Origin: Candidatus Latescibacterota bacterium
GTDB taxonomy: Bacteria > Latescibacterota > UBA2968 > GCA-2709665
Direction: 5' to 3'
Length of the DNA: 64,000 nucleotides
NCBI GenBank assembly: GCA_965219995.1
Contig: CBDCOX010000002.1
Coordinates: forward strand, 4,128,001 to 4,192,000
Positions 5,542 through 48,099 of this stretch are shown in pieces (position 1 is the stretch's first letter; every line of letters begins with the position of its first letter). The translations under genes were made by a program, and so were the position numbers. The notes beneath the pieces are model-generated. The model was not told the origin of the DNA and ran no database searches. It saw only the letters and a list, made by a program, of their open reading frames with translations.

Positions 5542-5685
5542 CGTGGTCATTGAGCTTGTCGAAATGCCCGTGTTTCGATACCCTTGAACAGGCTCAGGGT
5601 GCACCGCCCGGGGCTGTTTGCTTGCCTTCGCCGACCCTTCGTCCCTTCGACAAGCTCGGGGCACCGCATGCTCAGGGAGCGGCTC
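5542..5685. repeat. TTCGACAAGCTCA-type palindromic REP/MITE-like element, copy 1
   Basis: Termini CGTGGTCATTGAGCTTGTCGAAATGCCCG and CCCTTCGACAAGCTCGGGGCACCGCATGCTCAGGGAGCGGCTC recur in reverse complement at 48100-48248. Confidence 0.8.
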
Positions 5686-5704
5686 TGGGCCCAAAGACGA
5701 TCCC

Positions 5705-6301
5705 ATGACCGATACCATCGAACTGAGCAGCCTGGAAACGGACCCCCGCCTCCTCAGGTTCGCCCTCAACGGGAGCGGCGTCGACGGGCCCTCCTTCGAT
5801 GCCTGGAAGCAGGCCCGATCGTTCATCTCCTCCGAAATCCACCGTCCCGGCACCCTCCTGGACATCGGCTGCGCCAACGGCTTTCTGCTGCGGTGCCTCA
5901 CCGTGTGGAGCAACCACGAACTCACCCCGTTCGGCTTCGACGCCAGCGAGGGCAGGATCATGGATACCGCCAGGTTCTTCCCCTCGCAGGAGATGCAGTT
6001 CGCCCGCCTTCCGGTCGAACGGCTGGCGGAGATCGATTCGCATGGACTCCCGCGGACCTATGACTTCGTCTACTGGGCGGTCTGGGACAACTACCGGTTC
6101 GACAGACCGGACCGAATCGATCTGCTCAGACGCGCGTTTGAAAACGTGAGAGACGACGGGCGGCTGATCCTGGGTTTCTATGACCGCAAGCCCGAGACGA
6201 TAGAAAATAAAATCGCCCAGATCAGGGCGCTCAACCTGGGGCATGCGGTCCGCGTGGCCAATCCCGACGGCCCGCAGGTTCTGCTCAGGCTATCGAAATA
6301 G
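5705..6301 (+). CDS. Class I SAM-dependent methyltransferase
   Basis: Motif I LLDIGCANG, GFDAS, YDFVY, DGRLILG; start trimmed to MTDTIEL downstream of the repeat. Confidence 0.75.
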   Translation: MTDTIELSSLETDPRLLRFALNGSGVDGPSFDAWKQARSFISSEIHRPGTLLDIGCANGFLLRCLTVWSNHELTPFGFDASEGRIMDTARFFPSQEMQFARLPVERLAEIDSHGLPRTYDFVYWAVWDNYRFDRPDRIDLLRRAFENVRDDGRLILGFYDRKPETIENKIAQIRALNLGHAVRVANPDGPQVLLRLSK

Positions 6302-6304
6302 CAA

Positions 6305-6500
6305 AGGCGGTGAGCAAAAGCGGTGAGACGTGAGACGCAAGACGGTAGAGGAAATCCTTGCCCGATATGCTCTTCCTTAAAGCCTCCGGCCTGAATTGAG
6401 ACCTCACAGGGCTGGTAGTCTCTCCCGTCTCCCGTCTAACGACTACCCGCTCTTCAGGCACTGATATCCTCTCCCGTCTCCCGTCTAACGTCTACCCTGC
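6305..6500. repeat. Heptamer-armed repeat element, copy C (core type 2) with an extra right arm
   Basis: GCGGTGAGACGTGAGACGCAAGACGGTAGA...TTGCCC...GCCTCCGGC...GGGCTG...CTCCCGTCTCCCGTCTAACG (right arm twice); between convergent genes. Confidence 0.85.
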
Positions 6501-6506
6501 CTTTTC

Positions 6507-6971
6507 TCATCTCCTGATCACGTCTTCGAACTCCTGGAACATTTCGATGCTGATCCCGTCGGGGTCCAGCGCGTACATCGCGCGGGCAACCACCACCCCG
6601 TCCCGGTCCACGTCCGTGGGCGGATTGATCGACCCGAATCCCGCCGCCTTCAGTTGCGCATACATCGCGTCCACGTCGTCCACCTCAAACGCCACGTGCG
6701 ACGCGCCCAGGAACCGGTTTTCCTGAGGCCGCGCTTCGACCCGCGGATGAACATATTGGACGAGTTCCAGGATGAACTCATTCACGGGATGCCGCAGGAT
6801 CGCGATCATCAGATGGACCTGATCGTAGCCCAGAATCGTATCGTAGGACGGTATGTCCTTCCGCTCGGATATCCGCACGAGCTCCAGACCGAGCAGGTCC
6901 TGGTAGAACGAAACCGAACGATCCAGGTCCGATACCGTAAATCCGTGATGGTGCCCCATGACAATGCCCAT
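6507..6971 (-). CDS. VOC/glyoxalase family protein
   Basis: HHHGFTVSDLDRSVSFYQDLLG, ELVQY, HVAFEVDD, DPDGISIEM. Confidence 0.9.
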   Translation of the reverse strand: MGIVMGHHHGFTVSDLDRSVSFYQDLLGLELVRISERKDIPSYDTILGYDQVHLMIAILRHPVNEFILELVQYVHPRVEARPQENRFLGASHVAFEVDDVDAMYAQLKAAGFGSINPPTDVDRDGVVVARAMYALDPDGISIEMFQEFEDVIRR

Positions 6972-7268
6972 GTTTCTTCGCTCCCTGAAAGTCAATTTAT
7001 GCCTGCTGCGCAATCGCCAAAATCGTCTGTAGTGGGCCGTCGCGCCATATCCGGTTTGGTTAATATAAAGCCTGACCCTATAATATCAAGGTCGGCTTGA
7101 GACGGCGCGGGCGGATTACGAGCGCGAGCCCCTTGTTTTCAGGGGCGATTCAGGGAACTCCCGGCCAGGTGCGGTCGTCTATATTGAACCAGCCGCGGCC
7201 GGGCCCGCTCAATCGTTGGGCCGTCTCCGGCCCGGTCCGTTCCCACACCGTTTCAAAGGAGTTGGTCC

Positions 7269-7700
7269 ATGCGCATCCGAAGCACGCTTTCCCTGGCAGC
7301 CCTTTCCGTTATCCTGATCGCCGGTCCCGGTTTCGCGGGTGCAGTCGAGGTGCCGGGCGAAGGCGATCCGGCCCTTTACGTCGTGAAAGTACACGCCGAC
7401 TGGTGCGGCGCATGCACGGCCCTGATACCCGTCCTCGATGAGGTCCGGACGTCTCTTGCGGACAAACCCGTCCTCTTTCTCGAGCTCGACGTGACCGACG
7501 CGAAACGCGCGGCCCAGTCCCGGCTGCTGGCTGCCGCTCTCGGTTTCGAAGAGCCGTTCAAAGCCAACAACAAGACAGGCCTCGTACTGCTCATCGATCC
7601 TGCCAAAAAGGCCGTCGTGGAAACCCTCACGCGCAAGAATCCCGCGCAGGAGATGACCGGCAAGATCAAGGCGCACATCGCCATGGTCGGGAAATCCTGA
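7269..7700 (+). CDS. Exported thioredoxin-fold protein
   Basis: Hydrophobic signal peptide, HADWCGAC CxxC motif; AAGGAG RBS. Confidence 0.85.
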   Translation: MRIRSTLSLAALSVILIAGPGFAGAVEVPGEGDPALYVVKVHADWCGACTALIPVLDEVRTSLADKPVLFLELDVTDAKRAAQSRLLAAALGFEEPFKANNKTGLVLLIDPAKKAVVETLTRKNPAQEMTGKIKAHIAMVGKS

Positions 7701-7764
7701 GCATCGAGGTGCTGTGCGGCGAGGGGAGACGGGCGCGTCCACTTGGCTGCTAAGGAGAGACCGG

Positions 7765-8832
7765 ATGACCATTAAAGACATCACCGCGACCAGCGTCAGC
7801 ATCCCGTATGCCGCACCGGTCGGCCCGTACGTCGGCCGGGGCGCCGGCGGCGGTACGCTGGGGGGAGCAGGCCTCATTGTCAGGATCGAGTCCGATTCCG
7901 GTCTGGTGGGATGGGGCGAGGGCACCGGGAGCTTTGAAACGGATCCCAACGCGATCCTTGCAGGCAGCCACGTTTCCGACATCGAAAAGGCGATCGGACT
8001 CCTGGAAGTTTCGGGCATCGCGAGGGGTCCCATGTCCGGCGTCGAAATGGCACTCTGGGACCTCGTCGGCAAGCACGCCGGGCTGCCGGTATGCCGACTG
8101 ATGGGCGGCGTTGTGCGCACCGAAGTCGACTTCACCGCATGCATGGGCCTGAAGGAACCCGGACGGTCCGCCGCCACGGCGCGGGAGTATATCGACCGGT
8201 GGGGGTTCCGTTTCATCAAGACGAAAGCCGGCAATGACCCCTCGCAGGACCTGGCCATTGCCGAAGCGGCCTGTAAGGAGATCGGCGGCGAAGCCGTATT
8301 CCGCCCGGATGCGAACGGCGGTTACCCGCCGGAAGAGACGATGGATATCATGCAGAAGATGGCGGACCTGGGCGTCACGCACTTCGAAGACCCATGCCAC
8401 ACCGAGCACGTGGAAACGCTCGCGCGGGTGCGCGGCGAAATCGGCACGCACATCCTCGTCAACGGCGGCGTTGCCCTGCCGGGAAGCATCCGGCCCTTTC
8501 TGGAATCCGGATGTGCTGACTCCCTGATGCCGGACACCCCGGCCGCCGGCGCGATGCTTCGCGTCAGGAAGATCGCTGACGCGGCAGAACCGTGGAACGT
8601 GCCCTGCCTGATGCACTGTTCCCACGACCTGGGCCTGAAGACCGCAGCGATTACCCATATTGCCGCTTCCACGCCCAACTTCTCGGGCCCCAACGACACC
8701 TGCTACCACGGGTTGGTGGACGACGTACTGGCCGAACCCTTCACGTTTGAAAACGGGCGGCTGAAGGTTCCTCTCGGCGCGGGCCTTGGCGTGGAAGTCG
8801 ACGAATCCAAGGTTGAACGGTACAGGGTCTGA
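7765..8832 (+). CDS. Mandelate racemase/muconate lactonizing enzyme family (enolase superfamily)
   Basis: GWGE, EMALWDLVGK, KTK, DANG, FEDP, GLGVEVD. Confidence 0.9.
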   Translation: MTIKDITATSVSIPYAAPVGPYVGRGAGGGTLGGAGLIVRIESDSGLVGWGEGTGSFETDPNAILAGSHVSDIEKAIGLLEVSGIARGPMSGVEMALWDLVGKHAGLPVCRLMGGVVRTEVDFTACMGLKEPGRSAATAREYIDRWGFRFIKTKAGNDPSQDLAIAEAACKEIGGEAVFRPDANGGYPPEETMDIMQKMADLGVTHFEDPCHTEHVETLARVRGEIGTHILVNGGVALPGSIRPFLESGCADSLMPDTPAAGAMLRVRKIADAAEPWNVPCLMHCSHDLGLKTAAITHIAASTPNFSGPNDTCYHGLVDDVLAEPFTFENGRLKVPLGAGLGVEVDESKVERYRV

Positions 8833-8917
8833 TCCCCGGTCGGCCCTTCGCCCGGTTGTCGCCAGGGCGGGGCCGGACGCCTCCCCGAAGTTTTCGTTCC
8901 AAGCTGAAAAGGCTGCC

Positions 8918-9757
8918 ATGAACGCCGTCCGAGTCGACGACCGCGACTGGTCCACGCTGACCCTGGGCGAACGCATCCGCCAGATAGAACTCGACGGTTA
9001 CGTCGTGCTGCCCGATCTGCTCACTCGCGGACACGTTACCGGGCTCAAAGCCGAGACCGCCAGGCTGGAGACCCGCCCGGTGGACTACAGCGTCCACCAG
9101 CAGGTCTGTCCGAATCTGCAATTCACCGGCGGGCTCATCACCGATCTCATCGCCCATCCTCCCACCCTCGCCTTTCTGAACGAACTGTTCGGCGGGGATC
9201 CCATCTTCATGTCACACACGTATGCCCGTTCCGAACCCGGCCATCCCGGCATCAGCCTCCACACCGACGGGCAGCCCTACGGTTCTCAGATCTTCGGGTA
9301 CGGCGGCAGCGTGCCGTTCATGGTCCGGGTGCTCTATTATCTGGACGACCTCACCCGAAACGTCTCGCCCTTCCGCGTGATCCCCCGCTCCCACCTGTCC
9401 ATGCACGCCGACGCGAACCCGTACAAACGCTACGAGGACCATCCCGAACAGGTGATGGTCCCCGTTGAATCCGGCAGCGCCGTTCTGATCAACCACAAGG
9501 TCTTTCACGGGAACTTCCCGAACACCGGCGCCCACGCCCGGGAAATGCTGGCCGTTGCCTACCGTCCCGCCTGGGCCGGCCCCATTGACGAAGTTCCCGC
9601 ATGGGACGAGGCCGACCTCGCCGCATTGCCGGATCCCGTGCGTCCCCTCTTCGCCGATCCCAACACCCGCCACTGGGACTTCCACGGCGGCAACAAACCG
9701 GCCAACATGGCCAGCGAAGCGCCCGGCATCAATCCCAGCCGCTGGGACCGTCAGTAG
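8918..9757 (+). CDS. Phytanoyl-CoA dioxygenase (PhyH) family Fe/2OG protein
   Basis: DGYVVLPDLL, HxD (LHTD), VIPRSH, distal His (FHG). Confidence 0.85.
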   Translation: MNAVRVDDRDWSTLTLGERIRQIELDGYVVLPDLLTRGHVTGLKAETARLETRPVDYSVHQQVCPNLQFTGGLITDLIAHPPTLAFLNELFGGDPIFMSHTYARSEPGHPGISLHTDGQPYGSQIFGYGGSVPFMVRVLYYLDDLTRNVSPFRVIPRSHLSMHADANPYKRYEDHPEQVMVPVESGSAVLINHKVFHGNFPNTGAHAREMLAVAYRPAWAGPIDEVPAWDEADLAALPDPVRPLFADPNTRHWDFHGGNKPANMASEAPGINPSRWDRQ

Positions 9758-19307: not shown

Positions 19308-20180
19308 TCAGAGCTCCTCCACCGGGATGAACTCACCCCTGTCGTCGATCATGATACGTGCCCAATTCTGCTCCGGGTCGTGCGGCCACGCGACCAGCCA
19401 GCCCTCTCCAGCCGCCTGTGTCAGCACCCGTTGCTTCACCTCGAACGTCTTCCTCGGATACAGGTCGAACGCCATGATGTAAACCGGGTGCACGTGATGC
19501 CTGGTGGGGACCAGGTCTCCTATGAAACAGATTGTCTCGCCGCCACCCTGTACCAGGACGGACTGGTGCGCCGTCGTGTGTCCGGGCGTCAGGATCGTCC
19601 GCACGCCGGGGCAGATTTCCGCGTCGCCCTCAAGAAGCTCCAGAACGCCCGCCCGTTCCAGGGGAACCAGGTCCGTCGCGGCGTTGTACCCGTGAACGGT
19701 CTGCCGGTCCGCGCCAACGGCGTCTACCCATTCCTGTCGCTGTACGATGTACCGGGCGTTCGGAAACGCGGGCTCATAATCGTTGTCCGTCCAAACCGTT
19801 GTCCCGCCCGCGTGGTCCATGTGAAGGTGGGTGAGCACCACCCGGTCCACCGCCTCCGGCGCAATGCCCGCATCGGCCAGCGCGTCGATTACGCCCCGGG
19901 AGGGGTCCACACCATAGATGTCCCGATACTTCCCGGACAGTTTCTCGGCGCCGACACCGGTTTCCACCAGCACCGTCTCCGCCGGTGTCTCCACCAGCAG
20001 GCAGGTCAGGCCGAGTTGAATCCGGTTCCGCCCGTCCGGCGGGATCTTCTTTTCCCAGATCGACCGCGGGACCACGCCGAACATCGTCCCACCGTCGAGA
20101 CTGAACCGCCCGGCGTCCAGCGCTGTCACACGGATATCCCCGACGGTCCGCGATTCACCCTTTCGACTGGAATTGCTCAC
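19308..20180 (-). CDS. MBL-fold metallo-hydrolase (YtnP-like)
   Basis: LDGGTMFGVVP, THLHMDHAG, TPGHT, GDLVP, PHD; start codon uncertain (GTG at 20180). Confidence 0.88.
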   Translation of the reverse strand: MSNSSRKGESRTVGDIRVTALDAGRFSLDGGTMFGVVPRSIWEKKIPPDGRNRIQLGLTCLLVETPAETVLVETGVGAEKLSGKYRDIYGVDPSRGVIDALADAGIAPEAVDRVVLTHLHMDHAGGTTVWTDNDYEPAFPNARYIVQRQEWVDAVGADRQTVHGYNAATDLVPLERAGVLELLEGDAEICPGVRTILTPGHTTAHQSVLVQGGGETICFIGDLVPTRHHVHPVYIMAFDLYPRKTFEVKQRVLTQAAGEGWLVAWPHDPEQNWARIMIDDRGEFIPVEEL

Positions 20181-20572
20181 CCGATTCCAACTGTGAATGG
20201 ACTGCGTTGAGATTGCGGATTGTCGACGATCCCTGGCAAGAAGCCGCGGGTTCGACGCGGTCATGATGCAGGTATCTGCGACGGAAAGTCAAGGGCAAAA
20301 GACCGGAGGCATGGTTGTCCGGCGGGATGGGTAAACGTCCTTCCAAACCACCTTTCCGGTCCAATTCGGAAGGTTCTGTCGCGGCGTCGCGTTGCTTCTT
20401 CTGTCGAATTAACGTAAATTGTTGGCAGGGAATGAAGTCTGTATAGAGTTTTCGGTCAGGTTGGGTCGGCTCGTGGTTCCGTCTTTGATAAACTGCGTCG
20501 CGGATTTGCCGGCAAGAACGAAGGGTTTGTCGAGGATGGCGGCAAGGAAGACAAAGCTTAGGAGCGGCACCA

Positions 20573-21748
20573 ATGAGTATGGTTCGTGCGTACACTGATT
20601 TGAGCTCGTCATTTCCTATGCGCATCTTTGTGGTCGCCGGCGCGCTCATGGCGGGCGCTATTGCCGGGTGCGGATGGACTGGCGTTGTGGATGAGATTCC
20701 GGATGAACAGCACATTCCCGAAAGGACGATACGAAATGCAGGGAAAGTGGCCCTTGAATTGCGGGAAAGTGTCGAGCTTGTGTTTGATGAGGGCCTGCCG
20801 GAGATTCGGGACGTTGAGTGGATGGGTATTTCACCTGAGGGCACCTTGTTGGTTACCGACCGTGAAAGCCATCAGGCGCACGAAATCAACTACAGGGACT
20901 TAGAGTACATTCGCTCATTCGGGCGTACAGGCAGAGGTCCAGGGGAGCATTTGTCGGCTGACAATATGACGATGGATCCCGAGGGCAGGGTCTATCTCCT
21001 GGATGGAATTCAAGGGCAGATCCTGCGATTTGATCGCAAGGGCCGATTCCTGGATCGGACCCAATCTGTCGGGGTATCGAAGATTCACGCGGGTCGCAAT
21101 GATGGAGTATTTTTTCTTCGCGTGAACTCAAGCCTTATCATGGAATTACAGCGCCGGGACCCGTCGACGTGGGGCGTTTTGGGCCGTACACCGCTTTCCG
21201 ATCCAAAACAGAGTTATGTGTCGTTTCGGATGAAATATCTCGCAAAGTTGTGCTATAACGAGTCGTTGCAGGTGTTTTATTATCTGGGCCCGAATGACTA
21301 CATGGTCAAAGAGATCGATGCGATAACAGGTGAGATTACGGCGAAATTCGGCCGGCGACCGAACGGGTTCGTTGCCGTTCCCGATCTCTACCACCATATC
21401 GGGCGCGGAACTTTTGACGAATTGACACCCTTGGATGTTACCACCGTAGGATCTATGACACTGGTTGAGGATCGATATCTGTTCATATCACACGACCACC
21501 CGGAAACTCTAACGAGGGAATGGGTCGTCTATATGATAAATCCGTCCGGGACGTTCGAAGTGTTCGATCTGGATGACGTTACGAGTGGACGCTTTCGGCA
21601 ATTCAGCGGCCATGGCGGTGTGCCGGGGATGGGAGCCATCACCGCCGCGAAGGAATCCATATATATCTGGAGACCGCCACGTAGAGAAGTTGCGGACAGA
21701 TCCATCGGTACGATAGAAAAATATGCGGTTATGTTGGACCTGAACTGA
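20573..21748 (+). CDS. 6-bladed beta-propeller (NHL/DUF5128-like) lipoprotein, paralog 1
   Basis: Lipobox-like IAGC, FGRTGRGPGE, GRVYLLD, FDRKGRFL. Confidence 0.75.
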   Translation: MSMVRAYTDLSSSFPMRIFVVAGALMAGAIAGCGWTGVVDEIPDEQHIPERTIRNAGKVALELRESVELVFDEGLPEIRDVEWMGISPEGTLLVTDRESHQAHEINYRDLEYIRSFGRTGRGPGEHLSADNMTMDPEGRVYLLDGIQGQILRFDRKGRFLDRTQSVGVSKIHAGRNDGVFFLRVNSSLIMELQRRDPSTWGVLGRTPLSDPKQSYVSFRMKYLAKLCYNESLQVFYYLGPNDYMVKEIDAITGEITAKFGRRPNGFVAVPDLYHHIGRGTFDELTPLDVTTVGSMTLVEDRYLFISHDHPETLTREWVVYMINPSGTFEVFDLDDVTSGRFRQFSGHGGVPGMGAITAAKESIYIWRPPRREVADRSIGTIEKYAVMLDLN

Positions 21749-22007
21749 GGTCGGTGACTGCGATTTACCTGTTCCAGAACGTCGCCGGGACGCTCAGGGA
21801 TATCGCGAAGATTCCATTTCATTCGAGACCTTCGTGGGCTCGTCTGCCAACCCCCAGAAGATCCAAATTTGGGTAGCAGTGATCGGACATGGAATCTTCT
21901 CGTTACTTGCCGCCGGAAAACCTGGTAAAGCCACCAAGTCGCTACACTAGACACGTACACTCTGTTACCGAAGGCAATCGGCCCTCTTTGACATGATCCA
22001 ACAGTGT

Positions 22008-22162
22008 CCGGATCGAGGGCATCCCTGCCCTCGAACTTCGAGCAACCGACGAATTTCCACATCAAGGGCCAATTGCCTCCTTTCCTTCCGAGACCACATC
22101 CGTAGTGACGGCGCAAAGACCCCTCCTATTCGCCGTCGAGGGCAGGGATGCCCTCGATCCGG
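22008..22162. repeat. Inverted pair of 27-bp REP-like palindromes (BIME-like doublet)
   Basis: CCGGATCGAGGGCATCCCTGCCCTCGA (22008-22034) and its exact reverse complement (22136-22162); each has the internal palindrome TCGAGGGCA-N4-TGCCCTCGA. Confidence 0.85.
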
Positions 22163-22293
22163 GGAAAGGCGACTCTGACACCCAGGAATCGAGCTTATAG
22201 GCGTTTTGACCTCCGTGCTGCGCCACGTACATCCCTGCTGATGGATAGTTATTTACCGATGTTTATCAGGCAGCCTGATTAAGGAGAACACTT

Positions 22294-23466
22294 ATGGGTC
22301 TGGTTCGTGCGTACGCTAAATCGAGCTCATCATATCCAATGCGCGTCTTTCTGATCGCCGGGGCGCTCACAGTGGGTACAATTTCCGGTTGCGGAGGGGA
22401 TCGCGTATTGGAAGGGGTACCGGATGATGAGCGCATTCCCGAAAGGCCGCTGCGATATGCAGGGAAAGTAGCGCTTGAACTGCAAGAAACCATCGAGCTT
22501 GTGTTCAATGAGGACAAGCCTGAGATCGGGTATGTCGGGTGGATGGGCATTTCACCGGAGGGCACGTTGATGGTTACGGATTGGGATAACCATCAGGCGC
22601 ACGAAATCAACTACCGGAACAATAGTTACATTCGCTCATTCGGGCGCACAGGCAGAGGTCCCGGGGAGCACTTGTCGGCTCACCAGATGACAATAGATCC
22701 TGAGCGAAGGGTCTATCTCGTTGATCCGGCTCGAGGACAGGTCCTCCGGTATGATCGCACGGGCCGATATCTGGATCGGACCGAAGCTATCGGAGTATCG
22801 AAGATTCACGCCGGTCCTGAGGGAGAGATGTTCATTCTACGGGTAAACTCAAGTCTTTTCTTGGAATTACAGCGCCGGGACCCGGCGACGTTGGGAGTTT
22901 TAGGCAGTACACCGCTTTCCAATCAAAATCAGAGTTTTGTGTCGTTTCGGATGAGAGGAATGGCGCATTTGAGCTATAACGCTTCGATGCAGGTGTTTTA
23001 TTATCTCGGCCCGAATGACTACATGGTCAAAGAGATCGATGCGATTACAGGCGAGATTACCGCGAAATTTGGCCGGCGCCCTGCGGGATTTGTTGCGTTG
23101 CCCGATCGCTTCCACGATATCGGGAGTGGAACTGTTGACGATTTGAGGCAATTGGATATTACCAGTGTAGGATCTATGACATTGGTTGAGGATCGATATC
23201 TGTTCGTCTCCTTCAATAACCCGGGTACTATAATGAACGAATGGGTCGTCTATATGATAAATCCGTCCGGTCCGTTTGATGTGTTCGATCTGGATGACGT
23301 TACGATTACAAGCCTTGAGCCATTCAGGGACCACAGCGGTGTGCCGATGCAAGCCATCACCTCTGCGCGGGAATCTGTATTTATTTATAGACCGCCTCGT
23401 AGAGCAATTGCGGACAAATCCATCGGTACGATAGAAATATATGCGGTTACGTTGGACCTGAATTAA
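22294..23466 (+). CDS. 6-bladed beta-propeller lipoprotein, paralog 2 (tandem duplicate)
   Basis: Colinear with 20573-21748 and shares long identical blocks (QVFYYLGPNDYMVKEIDAITGEITAKFGRRP); AAGGAG RBS. Confidence 0.78.
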   Translation: MGLVRAYAKSSSSYPMRVFLIAGALTVGTISGCGGDRVLEGVPDDERIPERPLRYAGKVALELQETIELVFNEDKPEIGYVGWMGISPEGTLMVTDWDNHQAHEINYRNNSYIRSFGRTGRGPGEHLSAHQMTIDPERRVYLVDPARGQVLRYDRTGRYLDRTEAIGVSKIHAGPEGEMFILRVNSSLFLELQRRDPATLGVLGSTPLSNQNQSFVSFRMRGMAHLSYNASMQVFYYLGPNDYMVKEIDAITGEITAKFGRRPAGFVALPDRFHDIGSGTVDDLRQLDITSVGSMTLVEDRYLFVSFNNPGTIMNEWVVYMINPSGPFDVFDLDDVTITSLEPFRDHSGVPMQAITSARESVFIYRPPRRAIADKSIGTIEIYAVTLDLN

Positions 23467-23553
23467 GGATGGCAAGATCGAGATTATGTCGGCCGACGAG
23501 ACCAGAGAACTCGAAAAAGACTTGACGAAGAAACGGTCAAAGAGGCGTCGTCC

Positions 23554-23982
23554 TTAGCCGATTGACCGCTCCCTCACCACCTCCACCACCCCTTCAGCGG
23601 GGCGCATGCGGACGGTGTCACCGGTGCGGATGGTCGCGAGCGGGTCGGGTTGGAGTTCGTGCATCAGCGCCACGTTGGCCAGCACCGCGCCCTGGACCAT
23701 CACGGGATTCGTGCGACCGAAGATGAACCCCGCCGGGCAGGTCCCCCGCTCCACCATGTCCAGCATCATCCACGATGTGGCCACGCCGCCCTTGGACGTG
23801 CGGAACACGACGATTCTTCCGGCGATTGACTGTCCGAAGAGTGGATGCGTCTCACGGCTGATCACACCGCTATACCGGTCATCGTCGTACCGGGCGCTGA
23901 AGCCTTCCTCGCATACCAGCGCGATGCCTTCCGCGTCGGGTCCGACGCCCGGATGGCCGCGTAGCGCTGCGTTCTCGGTCAT
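23554..23982 (-). CDS. DUF126 / aconitase X small (swivel) subunit
   Basis: HPLFGQSIAGRIVVF..SKGG, IRTGDTV. Confidence 0.8.
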   Translation of the reverse strand: MTENAALRGHPGVGPDAEGIALVCEEGFSARYDDDRYSGVISRETHPLFGQSIAGRIVVFRTSKGGVATSWMMLDMVERGTCPAGFIFGRTNPVMVQGAVLANVALMHELQPDPLATIRTGDTVRMRPAEGVVEVVRERSIG

Positions 23983-24030
23983 CGCCCGTACGATTGAAGT
24001 TGAACTCGCTTGCGATGCAGGACACCACCG

Positions 24031-41423: not shown

Positions 41424-41503
41424 GGTAGGCGAACGGGATGTTTACTCCGGTACCTGACCGTAATCGCAGCCACCCATACCTCCCGGTTTTTATGCAAATG
41501 GAC

Positions 41504-41533
41504 TTGACAAACCCTGGTGCCTTAATGTACTTT
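41504..41533 (+). promoter_or_regulatory. Putative sigma70 promoter
   Basis: TTGACA-18 bp-TACTTT upstream of 41570. Confidence 0.45.
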
Positions 41534-41569
41534 TTCGAGAGTTGCACAAATGAAAATTGAGGGGGAAAT

Positions 41570-42070
41570 ATGGCAGGTATCGCCTTTGCACCAACCGTGA
41601 TGGCATTCAATCCGGGTATGTTAAGCGTTGATATTCCTTGGGTTAGCGGGGAGATTAGAGAAAAAGCCGTCATGTCCTTTGTCAAAATTGTAGGTGAGAT
41701 GAACAGGGATACGAAGCGACATACCGCGTTCCTGAAAAACATCTACAATGAGGCGGTTGAGAATCCCGATAGACTAAAGCACCTGATGCCCTACGAAGAT
41801 ATAAACGCGTCCGTCGAGCATCTGGAAGAATCCGAGGAAAAGTTAAAGAAATGTCTGAAGACGTTCGTCCGGATTCTCAATAGCGCCGGGTCCGAAACTG
41901 ACAACAGGAAGGTAGACGCGCTAAGCACGTTGATAGAGTCCATTAAATCGTTGATCGGTGCGTGCCAGGACCTTCGATGGCATGTGATGATTCACGAGGC
42001 TCAGAACGAACCTGCGTCAGGAATCGTCTGTGAGTCGCCGGAGGAATATCTGAAAAAGCTGTGGGAATGA
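41570..42070 (+). CDS. Hypothetical protein, probable antitoxin
   Basis: GAGGGG RBS; predicted helical; C-terminus CESPEEYLKKLWE resembles the 'S.EE...L' tails of antitoxins that precede RelE-type toxins. Confidence 0.6.
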   Translation: MAGIAFAPTVMAFNPGMLSVDIPWVSGEIREKAVMSFVKIVGEMNRDTKRHTAFLKNIYNEAVENPDRLKHLMPYEDINASVEHLEESEEKLKKCLKTFVRILNSAGSETDNRKVDALSTLIESIKSLIGACQDLRWHVMIHEAQNEPASGIVCESPEEYLKKLWE

Positions 42071-42074
42071 TGGA

Positions 42075-42238
42075 ATGGCGAACCACCAGCATTTGCCGAT
42101 CAGATTGGAAGAGCCAGGCAGGAGGTTCGTCAGACAAGCCCGCAAGTTGCCATAAAAATCCTCGACGCCGGGATAGGCCGCCTTCTCATTGTCGGGAAAC
42201 ATGATGTCGTTTACGAATCACTGAATCGCTCCAGGTAA
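42075..42238 (+). pseudogene. RelE/YafQ-like toxin pseudogene with internal deletion and frameshift
   Basis: MANHQHLPIRLEEPGRRFVRQARKLP* (42075-42155), then in another frame KILDAGIGRLLIVGKHDVVYESLNRSR* (42155-42238), matching the RelE C-terminal LLxVGxHD..Y motif. Confidence 0.6.
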
Positions 42239-42413
42239 ACCCCACCCCGAGTTCAACGCTCCGTTGTTGGCAGACGCCCCCTGCGGGACTCCCGATCGTC
42301 GTCCCTGCACGACGGTTGTCCGCTCCGAGCCGATCCCCGATAGAACCCAGCCCCCAGCATTCTGCGAGCATCGCGTCTACGCTACACTGTGGGGCACGTA
42401 CCAACGCAATACT

Positions 42414-42448
42414 GCACATTTGCACAGTTGCATGCAATGTGTTATATT
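42414..42448 (+). promoter_or_regulatory. Sigma70 promoter with overlapping imperfect palindrome (putative operator)
   Basis: TTGCAC (42420-42425)-17 bp-TATATT (42443-42448) with extended TG; CACATTTGCA...TGCAATGTG inverted repeat over the -35 and spacer. Confidence 0.6.
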
Positions 42449-42477
42449 AATGTGAGTGTACGTGGCGGGAGCGAAAT

Positions 42478-42729
42478 ATGTCGGAAAAGGAACACGACTA
42501 CATCAAGGAAGCGGCGAGCATGTCGATTCCGGCGACTGCGGTGGATCTGGCATCGAATCGGGCGATTGGTGAGCGCATCACCGAGTTGACACAAGTAATC
42601 GATCCCTATTCATCTGTTATGGACACGATCTTCCGCGCCGGGAGCATCACGCACGCCATTCGACAAATTGGTCATCTGGTTCTGACACCGGAAGGACAGT
42701 GTGTGTTGACCGTACGTGCAGGACACTAG
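42478..42729 (+). CDS. Hypothetical protein (83 aa), first gene of the putative Ubl operon
   Basis: GGGAG RBS, directly after the promoter; no motif recognised. Confidence 0.5.
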   Translation: MSEKEHDYIKEAASMSIPATAVDLASNRAIGERITELTQVIDPYSSVMDTIFRAGSITHAIRQIGHLVLTPEGQCVLTVRAGH

Positions 42730-42773
42730 AAGGCAAAACAGAAACGCAGTTAGAGATATAGGAGGAATTCAAC

Positions 42774-43067
42774 ATGGTGCAAGAACCTGGAAACGGCGAT
42801 GGACCCATCGGACCGACGGGGATCGTAAAGGAACTGACCATCTACATCAATGCTCGGTCGGCGCTGTGGGACAAACCGACCATTAGCTTTGCACAAGTTG
42901 TCGAACAGTGGAACAAAATCGATCCAGATCGACGCGTGATAGGTGATCTTCCGGGCATTGACTGGACGGCGAAGGACGGAACGAAGGGGATTTTCTATCC
43001 GTCCGATAACCCAATGGACGTGGTTGATGAACTGTCGTTCACGATTGACGACTCGTATCTCGCGTAG
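42774..43067 (+). CDS. Multi-ubiquitin-domain (beta-grasp) ubiquitin-like protein
   Basis: ELTIYINAR...W.KPTISFAQVV...G......M.V.D.LSFTI matches the Multi_ubiq pattern (I.VNG...W....ISYEQVV...V.DGM.F.V); AGGAGG RBS. Confidence 0.7.
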   Translation: MVQEPGNGDGPIGPTGIVKELTIYINARSALWDKPTISFAQVVEQWNKIDPDRRVIGDLPGIDWTAKDGTKGIFYPSDNPMDVVDELSFTIDDSYLA

Positions 43068-43075
43068 GGAAGACT

Positions 43076-44212
43076 GTGTCAGAACATGAGTCACGGGCTC
43101 GTTATGAAGCGGAGCGGCGCGAATGGAAAATCGAGCGTCGAGACTTAGAAATAGGTGCATTGGGAGTACCATGTTTTGTCGCACCGAATGTCGCAGGCGA
43201 ATGTCACATCTGGGTAGGGACTGCATCTGACTCGGACCAACTCGAAGCGAACCATGAATGGCAGCAAGGCGCTTTGCACGCGGCCATAATCCGAGGTCTT
43301 TCCGACGGCAGATTGTACGACCGATCTGGCACGGAGTTGACAGATGGGGTAATTGGAAGATCCCCTTCCAGCCTCAGTCTATCGATCAAGCTGACAGGCC
43401 GCGACTATGAGGATGCATGGGAGGCATTAAACAATTACGTCAAGCAGATATACGCGCTGTTCCTTGGCGGATCCGCATCGAGCGGGGAAGCGGCTCCACG
43501 CCCATATACATTCGATGTGCCTGGTGACCATCTGCCGGAAGCAGTCGAGTGGAGGGCTCTGGTAGCTCAAGAGCGTGTGGCGATTGTCGGACTTGGCGGT
43601 GTCGGCGCATGGATAGCAGACTCGGTTGTCAAGGCGGATCCTCGTGAGGTTTATGGTTGGGACTACGACTGCATAGAGCCCAAAAACATACTTCGCATGC
43701 CAGGTGGACTCGATCCGAACGTCTGGATCGGTAGGCCAAAGACCGAGTGGTTCCAAGAGACCTACTCCATAATACACAAGAACGTACATGGCCATAATGT
43801 AAAGGTACTCGCCGAAAACGTCCAAGACGTCGTTGATAGAACCACTTTCGCCTTCGTAGCCGTGGACGATGCGGACGCCCGGATGATGGTATGCGACGCG
43901 CTGGCCAACGCCAGAATCCCGTTCGTCGTGGCAGGACTCTCATTATTGCGTATTGACAAGAGAGTCAAGGTTTCCATGCGGATAGTAACCGCCCATGTCG
44001 GTGTGTCCTCTTGGAGAGAGGCTATCCCTCAAGTTGGCCGGGCGGGACAGGACGACTACGGCAGCCTTGACTTGCCCGACGTCTACTCAATGGCTGCGGG
44101 TTGGGCGATTCAGTCGTGGCGAAAGATGCGCGGCCAATTCTGGCAGGAGAAAAGCGAAGAGTGCCTAGTCTATCGTGCTCGTGAGCAGTCTCTCATATTG
44201 AGAGAGGTCTAA
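43076..44212 (+). CDS. ThiF/E1-like adenylyltransferase with N-terminal DUF6791-like domain
   Basis: RVAIVGLGGVG, DYDCIEPKNILR, FVAVDD...R; N-terminal LSIKL.GRDY.D....LNNY and C-terminal AIQSWRKMRGQF resemble DUF6791-ThiF proteins; GTG start with GGGA RBS. Confidence 0.8.
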   Translation: MSEHESRARYEAERREWKIERRDLEIGALGVPCFVAPNVAGECHIWVGTASDSDQLEANHEWQQGALHAAIIRGLSDGRLYDRSGTELTDGVIGRSPSSLSLSIKLTGRDYEDAWEALNNYVKQIYALFLGGSASSGEAAPRPYTFDVPGDHLPEAVEWRALVAQERVAIVGLGGVGAWIADSVVKADPREVYGWDYDCIEPKNILRMPGGLDPNVWIGRPKTEWFQETYSIIHKNVHGHNVKVLAENVQDVVDRTTFAFVAVDDADARMMVCDALANARIPFVVAGLSLLRIDKRVKVSMRIVTAHVGVSSWREAIPQVGRAGQDDYGSLDLPDVYSMAAGWAIQSWRKMRGQFWQEKSEECLVYRAREQSLILREV

Positions 44213-44288
44213 AGTGTTCTCTTGTAGATGGAGGAAGGCAGGAAAACGTGATTCTCATCCTAACTATGTTTTTAGGAACCGAGAGTCA

Positions 44289-44609
44289 ATGGTACTGAAG
44301 CCAGTGTTTGTTGAAACAATCCCGCAAATACCCGAAATGGAAGAGGGGACGCTTTACGTCAGCATGAGGTTCGCCGTCCTTTCCCACTTTTGTCCATGCG
44401 GGTGTGGTCGTCTAGTCGACGTGACGCTGGATCCTACGACTCGTAGTCTGACCTACGATGGCGAGTATCTGACTTTAGAACCTTCAATCGGGGTCAAGTT
44501 CCCGTGTAGAAGCCATTACTCGATTATTCGGAATGAGATCATCTGGTACCCGCCAATCTCGGAATCGCAAGTCAGTTGGTACAAACGTGTATGGGAGAGA
44601 TGGAGGTAG
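44289..44609 (+). CDS. DUF6527 family protein (Cys/His-rich)
   Basis: FVETIP...EEGTLYVS...HFCPCGCG...LTYDGE.LTLEPSIG..FPCRSHY.I..NEI.W. Confidence 0.85.
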   Translation: MVLKPVFVETIPQIPEMEEGTLYVSMRFAVLSHFCPCGCGRLVDVTLDPTTRSLTYDGEYLTLEPSIGVKFPCRSHYSIIRNEIIWYPPISESQVSWYKRVWERWR

Positions 44610-44707
44610 CCAAGAGTCTCTCTCGCTCTCATTTTCCGCCTGTTATAGTCAGGACTCCGCTGCTCTCGCTTTGTGTCCACTTAGCACCTAAATCCGGTAG
44701 CAAACCT

Positions 44708-45772
44708 ATGTCTCTGAATGAAAACCTGCGAAAAGCCAGGCGGCAAAAGATCGACGAGTTCTACACACAGCTTTCCGACATCGAGAACGAGCTGCGCCAC
44801 TACGCCGGACTCTTCCAAGGCAAGGTCGTATACTGCAATTGCGACGATCCCCGTGTCTCCAACTTTTTCCACTTCTTCTCGTACAACTTCGAGCGCCTGG
44901 GACTGAAGCGACTCATTACCGCCTGCTACAAGAACCAGGAACGCGATCTGTTCAGCCGTCACGATTCGGAGCGGGCGATTTGGCTCGAATACCAGGGGAG
45001 CGCGAAGGGTGCCAGGGAGCCTGACGTTGGGGATATTGGAATTCGTGAGTTTGAAGGAGACGGGGATTTCCGCAGTGCGGAATGCATCGAGCTTCTGAAG
45101 CAAGCGGACATCGTAGTGACCAACCCGCCGTTTTCGCTGTTCCGCGAATACGTCGCCCAACTGGTGCAATACGGCAAGAAGTTCCTGATCATCGGGAGTC
45201 AAAACGCCATCACGTACAAGGAGGTTTTCCCTCTAATCAAGGACAATAAGATGTGGCTTGGTGTCACCCCGAAAGGCCAAGATATGCTATTCGACGTGCC
45301 AGAGGACTACGCGAAGGAACTGGTGGCGACCGCAAAGGAGGGGAGCGCATACAGAGTCGTCGACGGGGTTATCAAAGGTCGGTTGGGTAACGCGGCCTGG
45401 TTCACCAATCTAGACCATAAGAAGCGCCATGAGGAATTGATCCTCTACAAACGCTACTCGCCGGAGGAATACCCGGCCTACGACAATTACAATGCGATCA
45501 ACGTGGACAAGGTCGCGGAGATCCCTATGGATTGGGACGGAGCGATGGGGGTGCCGGTCACGTTTCTGAACAAGCACAATCCAGAGCAGTTTGAGATCAT
45601 CGGGCTAACGGCAAGCGCCGACCGCTACGGCCTGAAAACGAAAAAATACACCGTGGCAGATGCTCCAAACTATAGCTATCTGAATAGCCGAGAAGGGGGG
45701 GTCATGAGGATGGGAAGCCGATATACGAGCACCTATAGGCGCCTTCTGGTTAAGAAAGTCCCGCCGCAATGA
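44708..45772 (+). CDS. Adenine-specific DNA methyltransferase, EcoRI-methylase family
   Basis: DEFYTQL, VYCNCDDP, GDGDFRS.EC, motif IV TNPPFSLFREY, WFTNL, MGVPVTFL. Confidence 0.92.
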   Translation: MSLNENLRKARRQKIDEFYTQLSDIENELRHYAGLFQGKVVYCNCDDPRVSNFFHFFSYNFERLGLKRLITACYKNQERDLFSRHDSERAIWLEYQGSAKGAREPDVGDIGIREFEGDGDFRSAECIELLKQADIVVTNPPFSLFREYVAQLVQYGKKFLIIGSQNAITYKEVFPLIKDNKMWLGVTPKGQDMLFDVPEDYAKELVATAKEGSAYRVVDGVIKGRLGNAAWFTNLDHKKRHEELILYKRYSPEEYPAYDNYNAINVDKVAEIPMDWDGAMGVPVTFLNKHNPEQFEIIGLTASADRYGLKTKKYTVADAPNYSYLNSREGGVMRMGSRYTSTYRRLLVKKVPPQ

Positions 45773-46863
45773 AAATTGACCTGAACGAGATCACGATCCG
45801 CGACCTTGTGGAGGACTACCATGACGACGGCGAAGGCGGGGTGCGCGGCTATGGCGGCAAGCTCGACATCCGACCGTCGTTTCAGCGCGAGTTCGTCTAC
45901 AGGGACAAGCAGCGCGATGCGGTGATCGAGACGATCAATAAAGGCTTTCCACTCAATGTGATGTATTGGGCCGTGCGCCATGACGGAACGTATGAGGTCA
46001 TCGACGGCCAGCAGCGCACGATCTCTGCGGCGCAGTACGTGGAAGGCGACTACTCCCTTGACGGAAGGTATTTCCACAACCTGCAAGACGACGAGCGGGA
46101 GAAGATTCTCAATTACGAATTGCAGGTTTACGTCTGCGATGGAACCGATAGCGAAAAACTGGCTTGGTTCAGGATCATCAACATTGCAGGGGAGAAGCTG
46201 ACTGACCAGGAGTTGCGGAACGCGGTCTATGCCGGAACGTGGGTGTCCGACGCAAAGCGGCATTTCAGCCGGAAGGGGGCTGCCTGCCCAGCGTATGCGA
46301 TTGGTAGCCGGTATCTGAATGGCAGAGCGGAGCGCCAGGAGTACCTCGAAACAGCCATCCAATGGATCAAGGACGAGGGCCAGACAGTCGAGGACTACAT
46401 GGCCGCCCATCAGCCTGACAAGACCGCAACCGCCTTGTGGAGTCACTTTCAGGCGGTCATCAACCGTGTTAAAGCGGTCTTCCCGAAGTATCGCAAGTTC
46501 ATGAAGGGCGTGGATTGGGGAGGGCTTTACAGGCAACTCAAAGACGAAAGCCTGGATCCGGAAGCGCTTGAAATCGACGTTGCCCGCCTGATGATGGACG
46601 ACGATGTCACAAGGAAGGCGGGCATCTACCCGTATCTCCTCACCGGTGAGGAAAAGCATCTCAACATTCGCGCCTTCTCCAACGCCATGAAGCAGAGGGC
46701 GTTCGAAATGCAAAACGGCGTCTGCAAGTCATGCGGGGAGGCGTTTGAGATATCGGAAATGGAGGCCGACCACATCAAACCTTGGTCGGAGGGCGGCAAG
46801 ACTGACGAACAGAATTGCCAAATGCTTTGCAAGCCGTGCAATCGCAGAAAATCCAATAAATGA
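45769..46863 (+). CDS. DUF262 (ParB/Srx-like, GmrS-type) domain fused to an HNH endonuclease
   Basis: PSFQREFVY, VIDGQQR, WF.IIN; C-terminal CKSC...ADHIKPWSEGGKT...NCQMLCKPCN; ATGA overlap with the MTase. Confidence 0.9.
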   Translation: MKIDLNEITIRDLVEDYHDDGEGGVRGYGGKLDIRPSFQREFVYRDKQRDAVIETINKGFPLNVMYWAVRHDGTYEVIDGQQRTISAAQYVEGDYSLDGRYFHNLQDDEREKILNYELQVYVCDGTDSEKLAWFRIINIAGEKLTDQELRNAVYAGTWVSDAKRHFSRKGAACPAYAIGSRYLNGRAERQEYLETAIQWIKDEGQTVEDYMAAHQPDKTATALWSHFQAVINRVKAVFPKYRKFMKGVDWGGLYRQLKDESLDPEALEIDVARLMMDDDVTRKAGIYPYLLTGEEKHLNIRAFSNAMKQRAFEMQNGVCKSCGEAFEISEMEADHIKPWSEGGKTDEQNCQMLCKPCNRRKSNK

Positions 46864-46948
46864 GCACATTCGGATGGGGCTTATATACTTAACTTGATAC
46901 GCCTATTGTGGACATCAAGGTACGCCTGAATAATACCGATCTGTACCA

Positions 46949-46983
46949 AATAAGGCCCCTCGTGGTGTGTGAGGGGCCTTATT
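46949..46983. terminator. Probable bidirectional terminator hairpin
   Basis: 13-bp stem AATAAGGCCCCTC / GAGGGGCCTTATT between convergent genes. Confidence 0.7.
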
Positions 46984-47083
46984 CCGGCAGGTCTGGTCGC
47001 GTGGGGTCGCTTACATCTCTCAGGAAGATATCTCATAGCGAAGGGTAAACCATGCTGATCTGCCAAGATATCCGGTCTGTATG

Positions 47084-47587
47084 TCAGTGGATTCTTGCAC
47101 TAATTTTGAATCTCTTGACGACCTCTTTGGTGATTTTGCTGGCGAGGGAACCTTCTGTTCCGAGGCCTTTGAAAGCCCAATCGGTTTTGTAATTGCATGT
47201 CCAGATGATGCCACCAGATCTACTAACCAACTTGACGTCGATATTCATGTTTTTTCCGGTGAACCAGTTGCCGTATCTTCGGATAGAGCCTGTTATCACG
47301 GCGTCTGTCTTGGAGATATCGAATATTTCCTTGGGCGATGGGGTACTTTTCTTGGTGTAGATCTGTGCCGAATCGGAGACCTCGAAAATTCCTAGTTGGA
47401 GCAATGCAGTTACCGTTCTGTTCGAAAGCTCGTTACCCAATCCGGGTTTGTTGCTCTCGAAGGGGATGACGACGATTTCTCTGAGGTCTCGAAGATTTGT
47501 CCGTGGCTTTAGCCATACTGTTCCTTTTGCGCAGCTTGTGGCGAACAGGGCCAGCAGAGCGTATAGCAGGATTCTGGAGCTGTGCAA
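47084..47587 (-). CDS. Hypothetical lipoprotein (CsgG/TolB-N-like fold possible)
   Basis: TTG start after AGGAGG; signal peptide ending FATSC; IVVIPFES, DAVITGSI, IIW. Confidence 0.65.
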   Translation of the reverse strand: MHSSRILLYALLALFATSCAKGTVWLKPRTNLRDLREIVVIPFESNKPGLGNELSNRTVTALLQLGIFEVSDSAQIYTKKSTPSPKEIFDISKTDAVITGSIRRYGNWFTGKNMNIDVKLVSRSGGIIWTCNYKTDWAFKGLGTEGSLASKITKEVVKRFKISARIH

Positions 47588-48099
47588 TTTGACCTCCTGT
47601 GTTATCCGAATCTGTCTGCATTGTGGGGAATCGTGTGGTGTAAATAGTAAATGTCCCGTGCTCCCGTCAAGGGGTTTGTCAGGCGAGCAGGTCGTTGAAT
47701 TCTACATAAGATCATATATGGACACTCCTCATAGTCTCAACAGCTTGGATTGTGTACCTCAAGCATGTAGCCCCTGAGCTTGACGAAGAGAGGCGAAACG
47801 CTGGCCTTTGGACGGACCGTATCGAGTGGCTCACCGTAAACGACGCATTGAGTCAGCATGTTTCGGCGGCCAGTTACAATCTATGCCCTTTAGGAATATA
47901 ATCTATGTCAACTATTCGCTTTTGTATTGAATAGGATTCGGATAGATTGAGACCGAATTTACTTTGGTAATACCCGTAACGTGAAGATTGCAACGCCTAC
48001 TCGAGGGGAACATGGTCAGGCGTGTTGGCAAGTTCAAAATACGGAATAGATGCAGCGCACCTGAAAAAGCAGTGAAAGAAACCCTGAAAGCCGTGCCGT

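Follow-up and report, generated by a model that had tools for sequence, protein, structure and literature searches.

Bacterial "6E/DUF6527" operons were renamed Bub by Ye, Gong, Chambers, and Corbett in a preprint that catalogues 544 of them (bioRxiv 10.1101/2024.11.21.623953), and a companion preprint also treats Bub operons (10.1101/2024.11.21.623966). As described in the text of the former, a Type II Bub operon encodes a ubiquitin-like protein (Ubl), BubA, an E2-E1 fusion, called BubBD, and BubE, which is a DUF6527 protein, typically without a JAB peptidase. The pathway runs without a catalytic cysteine, oxyester intermediates being carried by a tyrosine in the E1 crossover loop and a serine in the E2. 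In E. coli BubBD, these residues are Y342 and S106, the latter with a nearby "lysine+histidine", and R219 is needed for adenylation; ATP-dependent conjugation of E. coli BubA by BubBD is reported in vitro. According to the same text, BubE is a protease of the Ser/His type that contains a C4 zinc site, the residues of the Citrobacter protein being C57/C59/C61/C99, S92, and H102. Here we analyzed a 64,000-nucleotide stretch of Candidatus Latescibacterota DNA (contig CBDCOX010000002.1, positions 4,128,001 to 4,192,000), referred to as the window, in which three plus-strand genes at 42774-44609 very probably constitute a complete, strongly diverged copy of the Type II Bub (6E.2/DUF6527) operon and not a new kind of system. 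The cassette and the domains of its fusion protein are as follows.

42774..43067, plus strand: bubA, 97 residues, a single-domain beta-grasp Ubl that ends ...TIDDSYLA
43076..44212, plus strand: bubBD, 378 residues, a ThiF-type enzyme carrying GLGGVG and WDYDCIEPKNILRMPG
43076..43525, plus strand: E2-like N-terminal domain of bubBD, residues 1 to ~150, with predicted catalytic S103, K105, and H68
43526..44212, plus strand: linker and ThiF-type adenylation (E1) domain of bubBD, with GLGGVG at 172-177, R207, D264, and the crossover-loop Y328
44214..44609, plus strand: bubE, 131 residues, a DUF6527 protein with HFCPCGCG ... PCRSHY

In the list of open reading frames (ORFs) with translations, the three ORFs are co-oriented and separated by gaps of 8 nt and 1 nt, and an AGGAGG ribosome-binding site precedes bubA. 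This agrees with the gene order and the overall span given in an earlier note on this DNA, which had called the locus a ubiquitin-like conjugation module lying in a defence island. Neither a JAB gene nor a separate E2 gene was found in the cassette by ORF inspection and Pfam search; the note had likewise seen no JAB peptidase. When the window was compared with five relatives, the ratio of nonsynonymous to synonymous substitution rates (dN/dS) was 0.12-0.22 for BubA, 0.15-0.23 for BubBD, and 0.19-0.37 for the core of BubE. Given these values of 0.12-0.37, the three genes are real and under purifying selection.

The E1 part of BubBD was recognized directly, as Pfam ThiF matched residues 165-288 with an E value of 1.5e-12 and no cysteine occurs in the crossover region at residues 290-340. 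Thus, the description of a ThiF enzyme with an N-terminal domain of ~150 residues and a cysteine-less crossover was correct. DUF6791 (PF20590) did not match BubBD at E <= 0.1, and none of the five carrier genomes of this cassette (0/5) matched PF20590, so the strong divergence from DUF6791-ThiF proteins that the note had suspected is real. Relatives of BubBD were collected by a word-indexed search that returned 142 proteins at E <= 0.001, with 47-100% identity among the 120 matches listed. In an alignment of 27 family members, S103, R207, and Y328 were invariant (27/27), and H68 and K105 were conserved in at least 90%. The profile of these 27 diverged proteins was then compared by hhalign with that of 10 canonical DUF6791-ThiF BubBD proteins from the window's phylum, giving a probability of 99.9%, an E value of 9.4e-37, and 22% identity over 362 columns, with the N-terminal domain covered at full length. 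In this comparison S103/K105/H68/R207/Y328 fell on canonical S105/K107/H65/R218/Y341. Because the alignment with the DUF6791 E2-like domain places the catalytic Ser, Lys, and His in register, the E2 that seemed to be missing is probably this N-terminal part of BubBD. The earlier statement that no recognizable separate E2 is present holds, but the module would not lack an E2 domain.

Structure prediction pointed in the same direction for the E1 half. The AlphaFold2 (AF2) model of BubBD had a predicted local distance difference test (pLDDT) score of 83.7, with low confidence at crossover loop 322-330 as expected of a mobile loop. Its best structural match was Citrobacter BubCD (Foldseek E 3.5e-13; VIA-align Z 24.8, root-mean-square deviation 2.2 over 221 residues), which also gave the only matches in a sequence search of the PDB (E 7e-4). 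The N-terminal domain was modelled in helix-sheet-helix order, with pLDDT 82-94 over residues 1-130. Complex prediction for BubBD(150-378) with BubA scored 0.73, compared with 0.00 for the best of three controls; of 157 solved complexes 116 attain that mark, and of 215 mismatched pairs 2 do. Agreement among the runs covered at least 87% of contacts, with a partner pLDDT of at least 78. In the predicted complex, the tail of BubA (90 and 92-97) is in contact with the GLGGVG loop (172, 174-177) and with BubBD residues 261-264, 266, and 269. As similar complexes have been solved (BubCD-BubA, ThiF-ThiS, and MoeB-MoaD), this prediction shows likeness rather than binding.

BubA was matched by Pfam Multi_ubiq with an E value of 3.9e-4 and 21 bits, under the cut-off of 24.5 bits. 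Its AF2 model was a beta-grasp fold (pLDDT 82.8) with a Gly/Pro-rich N terminus and disordered residues 1-13. The top Foldseek match of the model was 9cd2, the multi-ubiquitin protein of E. coli ZDHYS365 (E 3.6e-3, probability 1.0), and the remaining matches were beta-grasp domains as well. This agrees with the earlier reading of the 97-residue protein as beta-grasp-like without Gly near its end, a reading that the note would have given up for any other fold. In hhalign, BubA aligned with canonical BubA at a probability of 97.4% and an E value of 9.4e-12, with the C termini in register and A97 on the terminal Ser. A97 is the predicted adenylated residue.

The end of BubA was examined further in its homologues. 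All nine from related loci end D[D/N]SYLA. An exhaustive representative search yielded 17 BubA relatives at E <= 0.001, of which 14 were fetched and three long multi-repeat proteins were left out. Eight of the 14 were full-length single-domain proteins with the same end register, terminating in A (4), S (3), or G (1); the others comprised three with C-terminal extensions and three that were fragments or frame-broken. In canonical Type II BubA of the window's phylum, 10/10 end T[D/G][K/R/Q]S. In a second phylum, PF20590 matched 8 of 401 sampled genomes, and the BubA proteins of all seven complete operons end in Ser. Terminal Ser was hence found in 17/17 canonical Type II BubA recovered (10 + 7, two phyla), with T-x-x-S as the consensus terminus, and the last residues of the E. 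coli ZDHYS365 chain 9cd2 are ...TDKS. The Gly-less C terminus is therefore the rule in the family and no anomaly of this locus, with the subfamily ending in Ala or Ser. The note had been right that Gly is absent but wrong to see an oddity in it. A small non-Gly BubA terminus as a mark of the family was derived here from the recovered sequences and is not stated in the preprint's text, where the words "C-terminal serine" occur 0 times in the main text. Because E. coli BubA and BubBD conjugate in an ATP-dependent manner according to that text (10.1101/2024.11.21.623953), a non-Gly terminus is compatible with conjugation chemistry.

A separate observation concerns P0127 (1067 aa), P0137 (1231 aa), and P0136 (618 aa), which contain 11, 9, and 4 stretches resembling the BubA Ubl, respectively. 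They may be giant multi-ubiquitin-repeat proteins; the Pfam matches of P0127 were zero-stretch matches only, and their meaning is doubtful.

As the note had described, the third gene, at 44214-44609, encodes a small HxCPCGCG...CRSHY protein, and it matched DUF6527 (PF20137) with an E value of 9.4e-17. In the numbering of the 131-residue ORF, C60, C62, C64, and C98, together with S91 and H101, have spacing identical to that of C57/C59/C61/C99, S92, and H102 in Citrobacter BubE. BubE is therefore predicted to be a DUF6527 protease of the Ser/His type that carries a C4 zinc site, and among the roles the note had considered for DUF6527 the zinc-binding peptidase is the one that this published spacing favors. 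With the canonical BubE that the same genome encodes, it shared 42% identity (E 6e-25). Codons 1-25 of bubE (44214-44288) had a dN/dS of 0.34-1.33, compared with 0.19-0.37 in the rest, and the canonical BubE aligns from residue 23 of the ORF. Since the 5' codons are less constrained and the canonical protein aligns only from there, the true start may be ATG 44289. With this, all predicted catalytic residues are present at the locus, that is, S103, K105, H68, R207, and Y328 in BubBD and C60/C62/C64/C98, S91, and H101 in BubE.

By homology to the E. coli and Citrobacter systems, and in keeping with the sequence-level features observed here, the cassette would work as follows. The E1 domain of BubBD would bind BubA and adenylate its free C-terminal Ala97; as the gene ends at Ala97, no processing of BubA would be needed. 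The acyl group would then move as an oxyester to Tyr328 on the flexible crossover loop and from there to Ser103 of the fused E2-like domain, aided by Lys105 and His68, after which BubA would be transferred onto a lysine of a target protein. BubE, as a zinc-stabilized Ser91/His101 protease, would strip BubA from its targets and so restrain the pathway. The cassette of ~2.2 kb moves horizontally as a unit into defence islands, and antiphage or stress defence is a likely role on account of this movement.

Compared with the described systems, the locus shares with Type II Bub (E. coli ZDHYS365; BubA 9cd2) the gene order Ubl, E2-E1 fusion, DUF6527, the lack of both JAB and catalytic Cys, the aligned E2 Ser (with Lys/His), adenylation Arg, and crossover Tyr, the C4 site and Ser/His dyad of BubE, a non-Gly Ubl terminus in the same register, and an occurrence in mobile or defence contexts. 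It differs from canonical members in that BubBD has 22% profile-to-profile identity and an N-terminal domain missed by Pfam DUF6791, and that its 97-residue Ubl consists of one beta-grasp and has an Ala end (Ser in some relatives), not T-x-x-S. Type I Bub (Citrobacter BubAB, BubCD, and BubE; PDB 9ea4 and 9eav) provides the best PDB match of the E1 by both sequence and structure and has the oxyester logic and the BubE protease in common with the locus, whereas its Ubl-E2 fusion, its JAB-E1 fusion, and its Gly terminus exposed by JAB cleavage are not found here. An assignment to Type I was rejected because a JAB domain is lacking and the 97-residue Ubl is encoded as a protein of its own. Cap2/Cap3 of the Type II cyclic-oligonucleotide-based antiphage signaling system (CBASS) and Bil (BilA-D) resemble the locus in having E1/E2-type conjugation in defence islands, and Cap2 is also an E2-E1 fusion, but these systems use catalytic cysteines and JAB peptidases. 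CBASS/Cap2 was rejected as well: the E1-E2 models of PADLOC matched the ThiF region only, and weakly (best E 1.9e-7), no CD-NTase was found in the cassette, and neither a catalytic Cys nor a JAB Cap3 is present. No PADLOC model matched BubA or BubE.

The earlier proposal is partly supported. The locus is indeed a candidate ubiquitin-like conjugation module, in which the Ubl, the E1-type enzyme, and the DUF6527 protein all match Bub counterparts. It is not the novel, non-canonical conjugation or adenylation system that the note had suggested, because the lack of a catalytic Cys, of a JAB gene, and of a separate E2, as well as the Cys-rich DUF6527 protein, are traits of Type II Bub in the preprint's text (10.1101/2024.11.21.623953).

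A second, canonical Type II Bub operon lies in the same genome outside the window (G000:C2, ~86.1-89.1 kb; L013, 6096-9084). It encodes a Multi_ubiq protein of 146 residues (E 1.2e-14) ending ...TDKS, a DUF6791-ThiF protein of 394 residues (DUF6791 E 5.7e-57), and a DUF6527 protein of 129 residues, accompanied by HTH_3 and Peptidase_M78 genes (CapH/CapP type) that are transcribed divergently. Its neighbors are an N6_Mtase/Methylase_S fusion of 871 residues, a protein with DUF2188, and a weak match to SIR2_2. The two loci are alike in their three-gene architecture and in having a neighbor gene of restriction-modification (R-M) type. When 168 genomes from the window's phylum were scanned with PF20590, canonical operons were found in 10. 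That a single genome harbors both Bub lineages points to orthogonal Ubl-E1 pairs.

Upstream of the cassette, two further elements on the plus strand were identified.

42421..42448, plus strand: sigma-70-like promoter, with a TTGCAC-type first hexamer and an extended -10 TGnTATATT, ~30 nt 5' of the upstream gene
42478..42729, plus strand: upstream gene, a truncated, degenerate copy of 83 residues, with homologous ORFs directly upstream of BubA in 9/9 full loci

A promoter consensus scan gave three sites in the region against 3.0 expected by chance and is weak alone. In an upstream DNA alignment of nine cassette copies, however, the two hexamer blocks were the only conserved columns. The spacer holds a 10-bp palindrome, TTGCATGCAA. 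The upstream gene encodes ~139 residues in 7/9 related loci and belongs to a family of 85 proteins with no Pfam domain, an invariant strand-like LSFRAN motif, and a C-terminal WHWxExC...CxxC part. In the window, the C-terminal ~55 residues are lacking and MSIPAT replaces the invariant LSFRAN, so that 4/6 residues differ. The congener L004 shares the truncation and the changes at invariant positions, and the dN/dS between the window and L004 was 0.63. The N-terminal part, with helices reminiscent of ribbon-helix-helix (RHH) proteins, is inferred to have RHH-like DNA binding, and the gene is likely the operon's transcriptional regulator. The RHH assignment follows from the sequence pattern, since database searches gave nothing usable: the family had no NCBIfam match, either no Pfam match or one of E 0.063 to YdjO, a protein atlas score of 0.75, below the useful range, and a best hit in the PDB profile search of E 0.44 to an AHA1 fragment. 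The regulators associated with other Bub operons are CapW, CapH with CapP, or CapK with CapS (WYL-HTH, HTH with M78 peptidase, or kinase with STAS-wHTH), and the upstream gene, which has no Pfam or NCBIfam match, is none of these.

Downstream, the cassette is directly followed in the window by an R-M pair, and the whole lies in a variable island.

44708..45772, plus strand: EcoRI-type adenine DNA methyltransferase (PF13651 E 1.5e-133; PADLOC MTase_II E 9.9e-118)
45769..46863, plus strand: GmrSD_N (DUF262-type) and HNH endonuclease (GmrSD_N E 7.4e-19, HNH E 1.4e-15; PADLOC REase_II E 2.2e-139, full length)
41430..47865, no strand assigned: variable island between D-2-hydroxyacid-dehydrogenase-like and large heparinase-like genes

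The methyltransferase starts at ATG 44708, as the proteins of relatives begin at residue 45 of the long ORF, and the GmrSD_N-HNH endonuclease is the restriction partner of the adjacent methylase. The GC content of the window was 0.51-0.54 at 42-48 kb and 0.62-0.63 past 48 kb. Both the R-M pair directly 3' of the cassette and the GC dip speak for the defence-island setting that the note had proposed. A second lower-GC stretch was seen at window positions 20001-24000, with 0.54-0.55 compared with ~0.61-0.64 in most flanking DNA and a reversed GC skew. This stretch, too, may have been acquired.

Besides the Bub cassette and the R-M pair, the island contains a 166-aa ORF and a minus-strand ORF of 167 aa. 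The 166-aa ORF, at 41570-42070, had no family match in Pfam or NCBIfam. When the slot was compared among 14 congeners, DNA matching this ORF was found at the site in 7/14. Six congeners had none of the 166-aa ORF, Bub, and R-M genes in the slot, one of which (G046) had 676 unmatched bases instead; six had the 166-aa ORF part only; one (G056) had the 166-aa ORF and the R-M pair without Bub, with a junction joining 42077 to 44674; and one (G055, which is L004) had Bub and R-M as in the window. In G045, an 83-bp stretch matched window positions 46793-46875, at the 3' end of the endonuclease region, although the genes themselves were not there. The slot is hypervariable in the genus. A tRNA scan of the window found none, and hence no tRNA-linked integration site, and no direct repeats were seen at the cassette ends on inspection by eye only, no repeat search having been run.

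Copies of the cassette were also found in genomes that bear distant taxonomic labels. A scan of genome contigs matched 49 stretches, 11 of them encoding a relative, in 10 loci from other genomes, across which BubBD was 77-89% identical. The carriers are metagenome-assembled genomes (MAGs) labelled Rhodothermales, Pseudomonadales, Acidobacteria, Latescibacterota (2), Gemmatimonadetes, Vicinamibacterales, Arenicellales, Gammaproteobacteria, and unclassified bacterium. The cassette DNA was ~80-86% identical over ~42710-44610, and dS was only 0.18-0.80 in a comparison of five copies. In 3 of 168 genomes of the window's phylum, a closely similar E2-like domain (at least 77% identity) was present. 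The gene order Ubl, E2-E1 fusion, DUF6527 was kept in 9/9 full related loci, and defence or mobility genes were found beside the cassette in 8/10 loci from other genomes. R-M genes or DNA methylases adjoin it in L001, L002, L003, L004, L005, and L009, with the same R-M pair 3' of the cassette in three of the nine other full loci (L001, L004, and L005). The individual neighbors at the remaining loci with such genes were as follows.

L002: N6_N4 methylase
L003: methylase-HTH upstream and DUF6119 downstream
L008: Schlafen-like helicase fragment
L009 (Latescibacterota MAG, 5607-9081): the cassette, then Thoeris ThsB (TIR) and ThsA (Macro), then a PvuII-type R-M pair
L010: phage integrase

Several points weigh against assigning the locus to Type II Bub with defence as its function. 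The N-terminal domain of BubBD is missed by Pfam DUF6791, and its homology becomes visible only when profile is compared with profile; structure searches with the whole BubBD model gave E1-domain matches only, and the E2 fold of residues 1-150 is a prediction from profile homology. The PRK06153 models of NCBIfam cover BubBD residues 163-374 only, with 101.6 bits against a cut-off of 340. The Multi_ubiq score of BubA is below its cut-off, and the terminal residue is Ala, compared with Ser in canonical Type II BubA; adenylation of an Ala terminus is only predicted for Bub. BubBD C33 and C363 (window 43172-43174 and 44162-44164) are invariant in 27/27 members and specific to the subfamily, and the putative upstream regulator is truncated here. 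Finally, no Bub operon has been shown to be phage-protective, according to the text of the preprint (10.1101/2024.11.21.623953) and of a 2026 EMBO J paper.

Three other explanations were considered, which even together carry a fairly small probability. The cassette could look intact yet be decaying or deregulated, either silent or constitutively on, and contribute little in its host. The loss of the Cys-rich C-terminal part from the upstream gene (83 against ~139 residues), the four changed LSFRAN residues, and its dN/dS of 0.63 against the congener copy would agree with this. BubA, BubBD, and BubE, however, are full length, keep every catalytic residue, and have dN/dS of 0.12-0.26 against the same congener, and the conserved promoter blocks also argue against decay. 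Moreover, the truncated gene is kept in two genomes of the genus (the window and L004), which is more in line with a regulatory variant that is tolerated than with decay, and we regard this explanation as unlikely. It is still less probable that the locus is a mechanistically distinct offshoot, in which a thioester forms on Cys33 or Cys363 or the Ala-ended peptide is modified terminally in the manner of MccB or PaaA. The two cysteines are invariant in the subfamily, whereas canonical BubBD does not conserve them; the structural neighbors of the E1 domain include MccB and PaaA; and the subfamily ends in Ala/Ser where canonical BubA has Ser. Against such chemistry, each of the canonical Ser, Lys, His, Arg, and Tyr is invariant or close to it, and the deconjugating BubE is retained. 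In the complex model, C363 is predicted to touch the face of the BubA beta-sheet (residues 61 and 73) and not the tail, and C33 would sit in an early strand of the E2-like domain, away from the place where the catalytic residue aligns.

A pathway for sulfur carriage or a cofactor, of the ThiS/MoaD-ThiF/MoeB type and without protein conjugation, is the least credible of the three, and we consider it highly improbable. Weak NCBIfam matches of the adenylation domain to ThiF, MoeB, and TcdA (E 4.6e-10 to 1e-2, all far under cut-off) and structural similarity to MoeB and ThiF would favor it. BubA, however, ends ...SYLA without a Gly-Gly terminus, and neither the cassette nor any of the 10 related loci contains a sulfurtransferase, ThiG/MoaE, or rhodanese gene. 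In addition, an E2-like domain is fused to the E1, a BubE protease is encoded, the context is one of R-M, Thoeris, and integrase genes, and the closest proteins by sequence and structure are Bub proteins. The note had named non-syntenic homologs, or homologs in cofactor or sulfur-transfer contexts, as evidence that would speak against conjugation; the 9/9 syntenic loci and the lack of sulfur-transfer partners in the 10 related loci are the reverse. The sulfur-carrier and the microcin-type readings were accordingly rejected for want of a Gly-Gly end and sulfur-transfer partners and for the retention of the canonical Bub residues and BubE.

Within the Type II Bub assignment, a further proposal is possible, though we would sooner doubt it than assert it. 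The cassette may represent a distinct third Bub lineage, missed or under-scored by Pfam, with its own RHH-plus-Cys/His regulator and an Ala/Ser single-domain Ubl, recently spread among MAGs labelled as at least six distant groups and forming orthogonal, non-redundant pairs beside a canonical operon. The same tentative proposal holds that a small non-Gly Ser/Ala terminus would be defining and mechanistically meaningful in all E2-E1-fusion Bub systems, as opposed to the Gly of Type I.

The system type has thus been known since 2024, and what had looked odd at this locus are its published hallmarks. The diverged, Ala-ended Ubl of 97 residues offers a compact case for how adenylation and oxyester transfer handle non-Gly termini, and the Ser terminus is constant among the canonical Type II BubA proteins recovered here, a point that the preprint text does not discuss (10.1101/2024.11.21.623953). 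The upstream gene is a candidate for a fourth kind of Bub-associated regulator. The movement of the cassette among distant bacteria and into defence slots supports a putative role in defence or stress.

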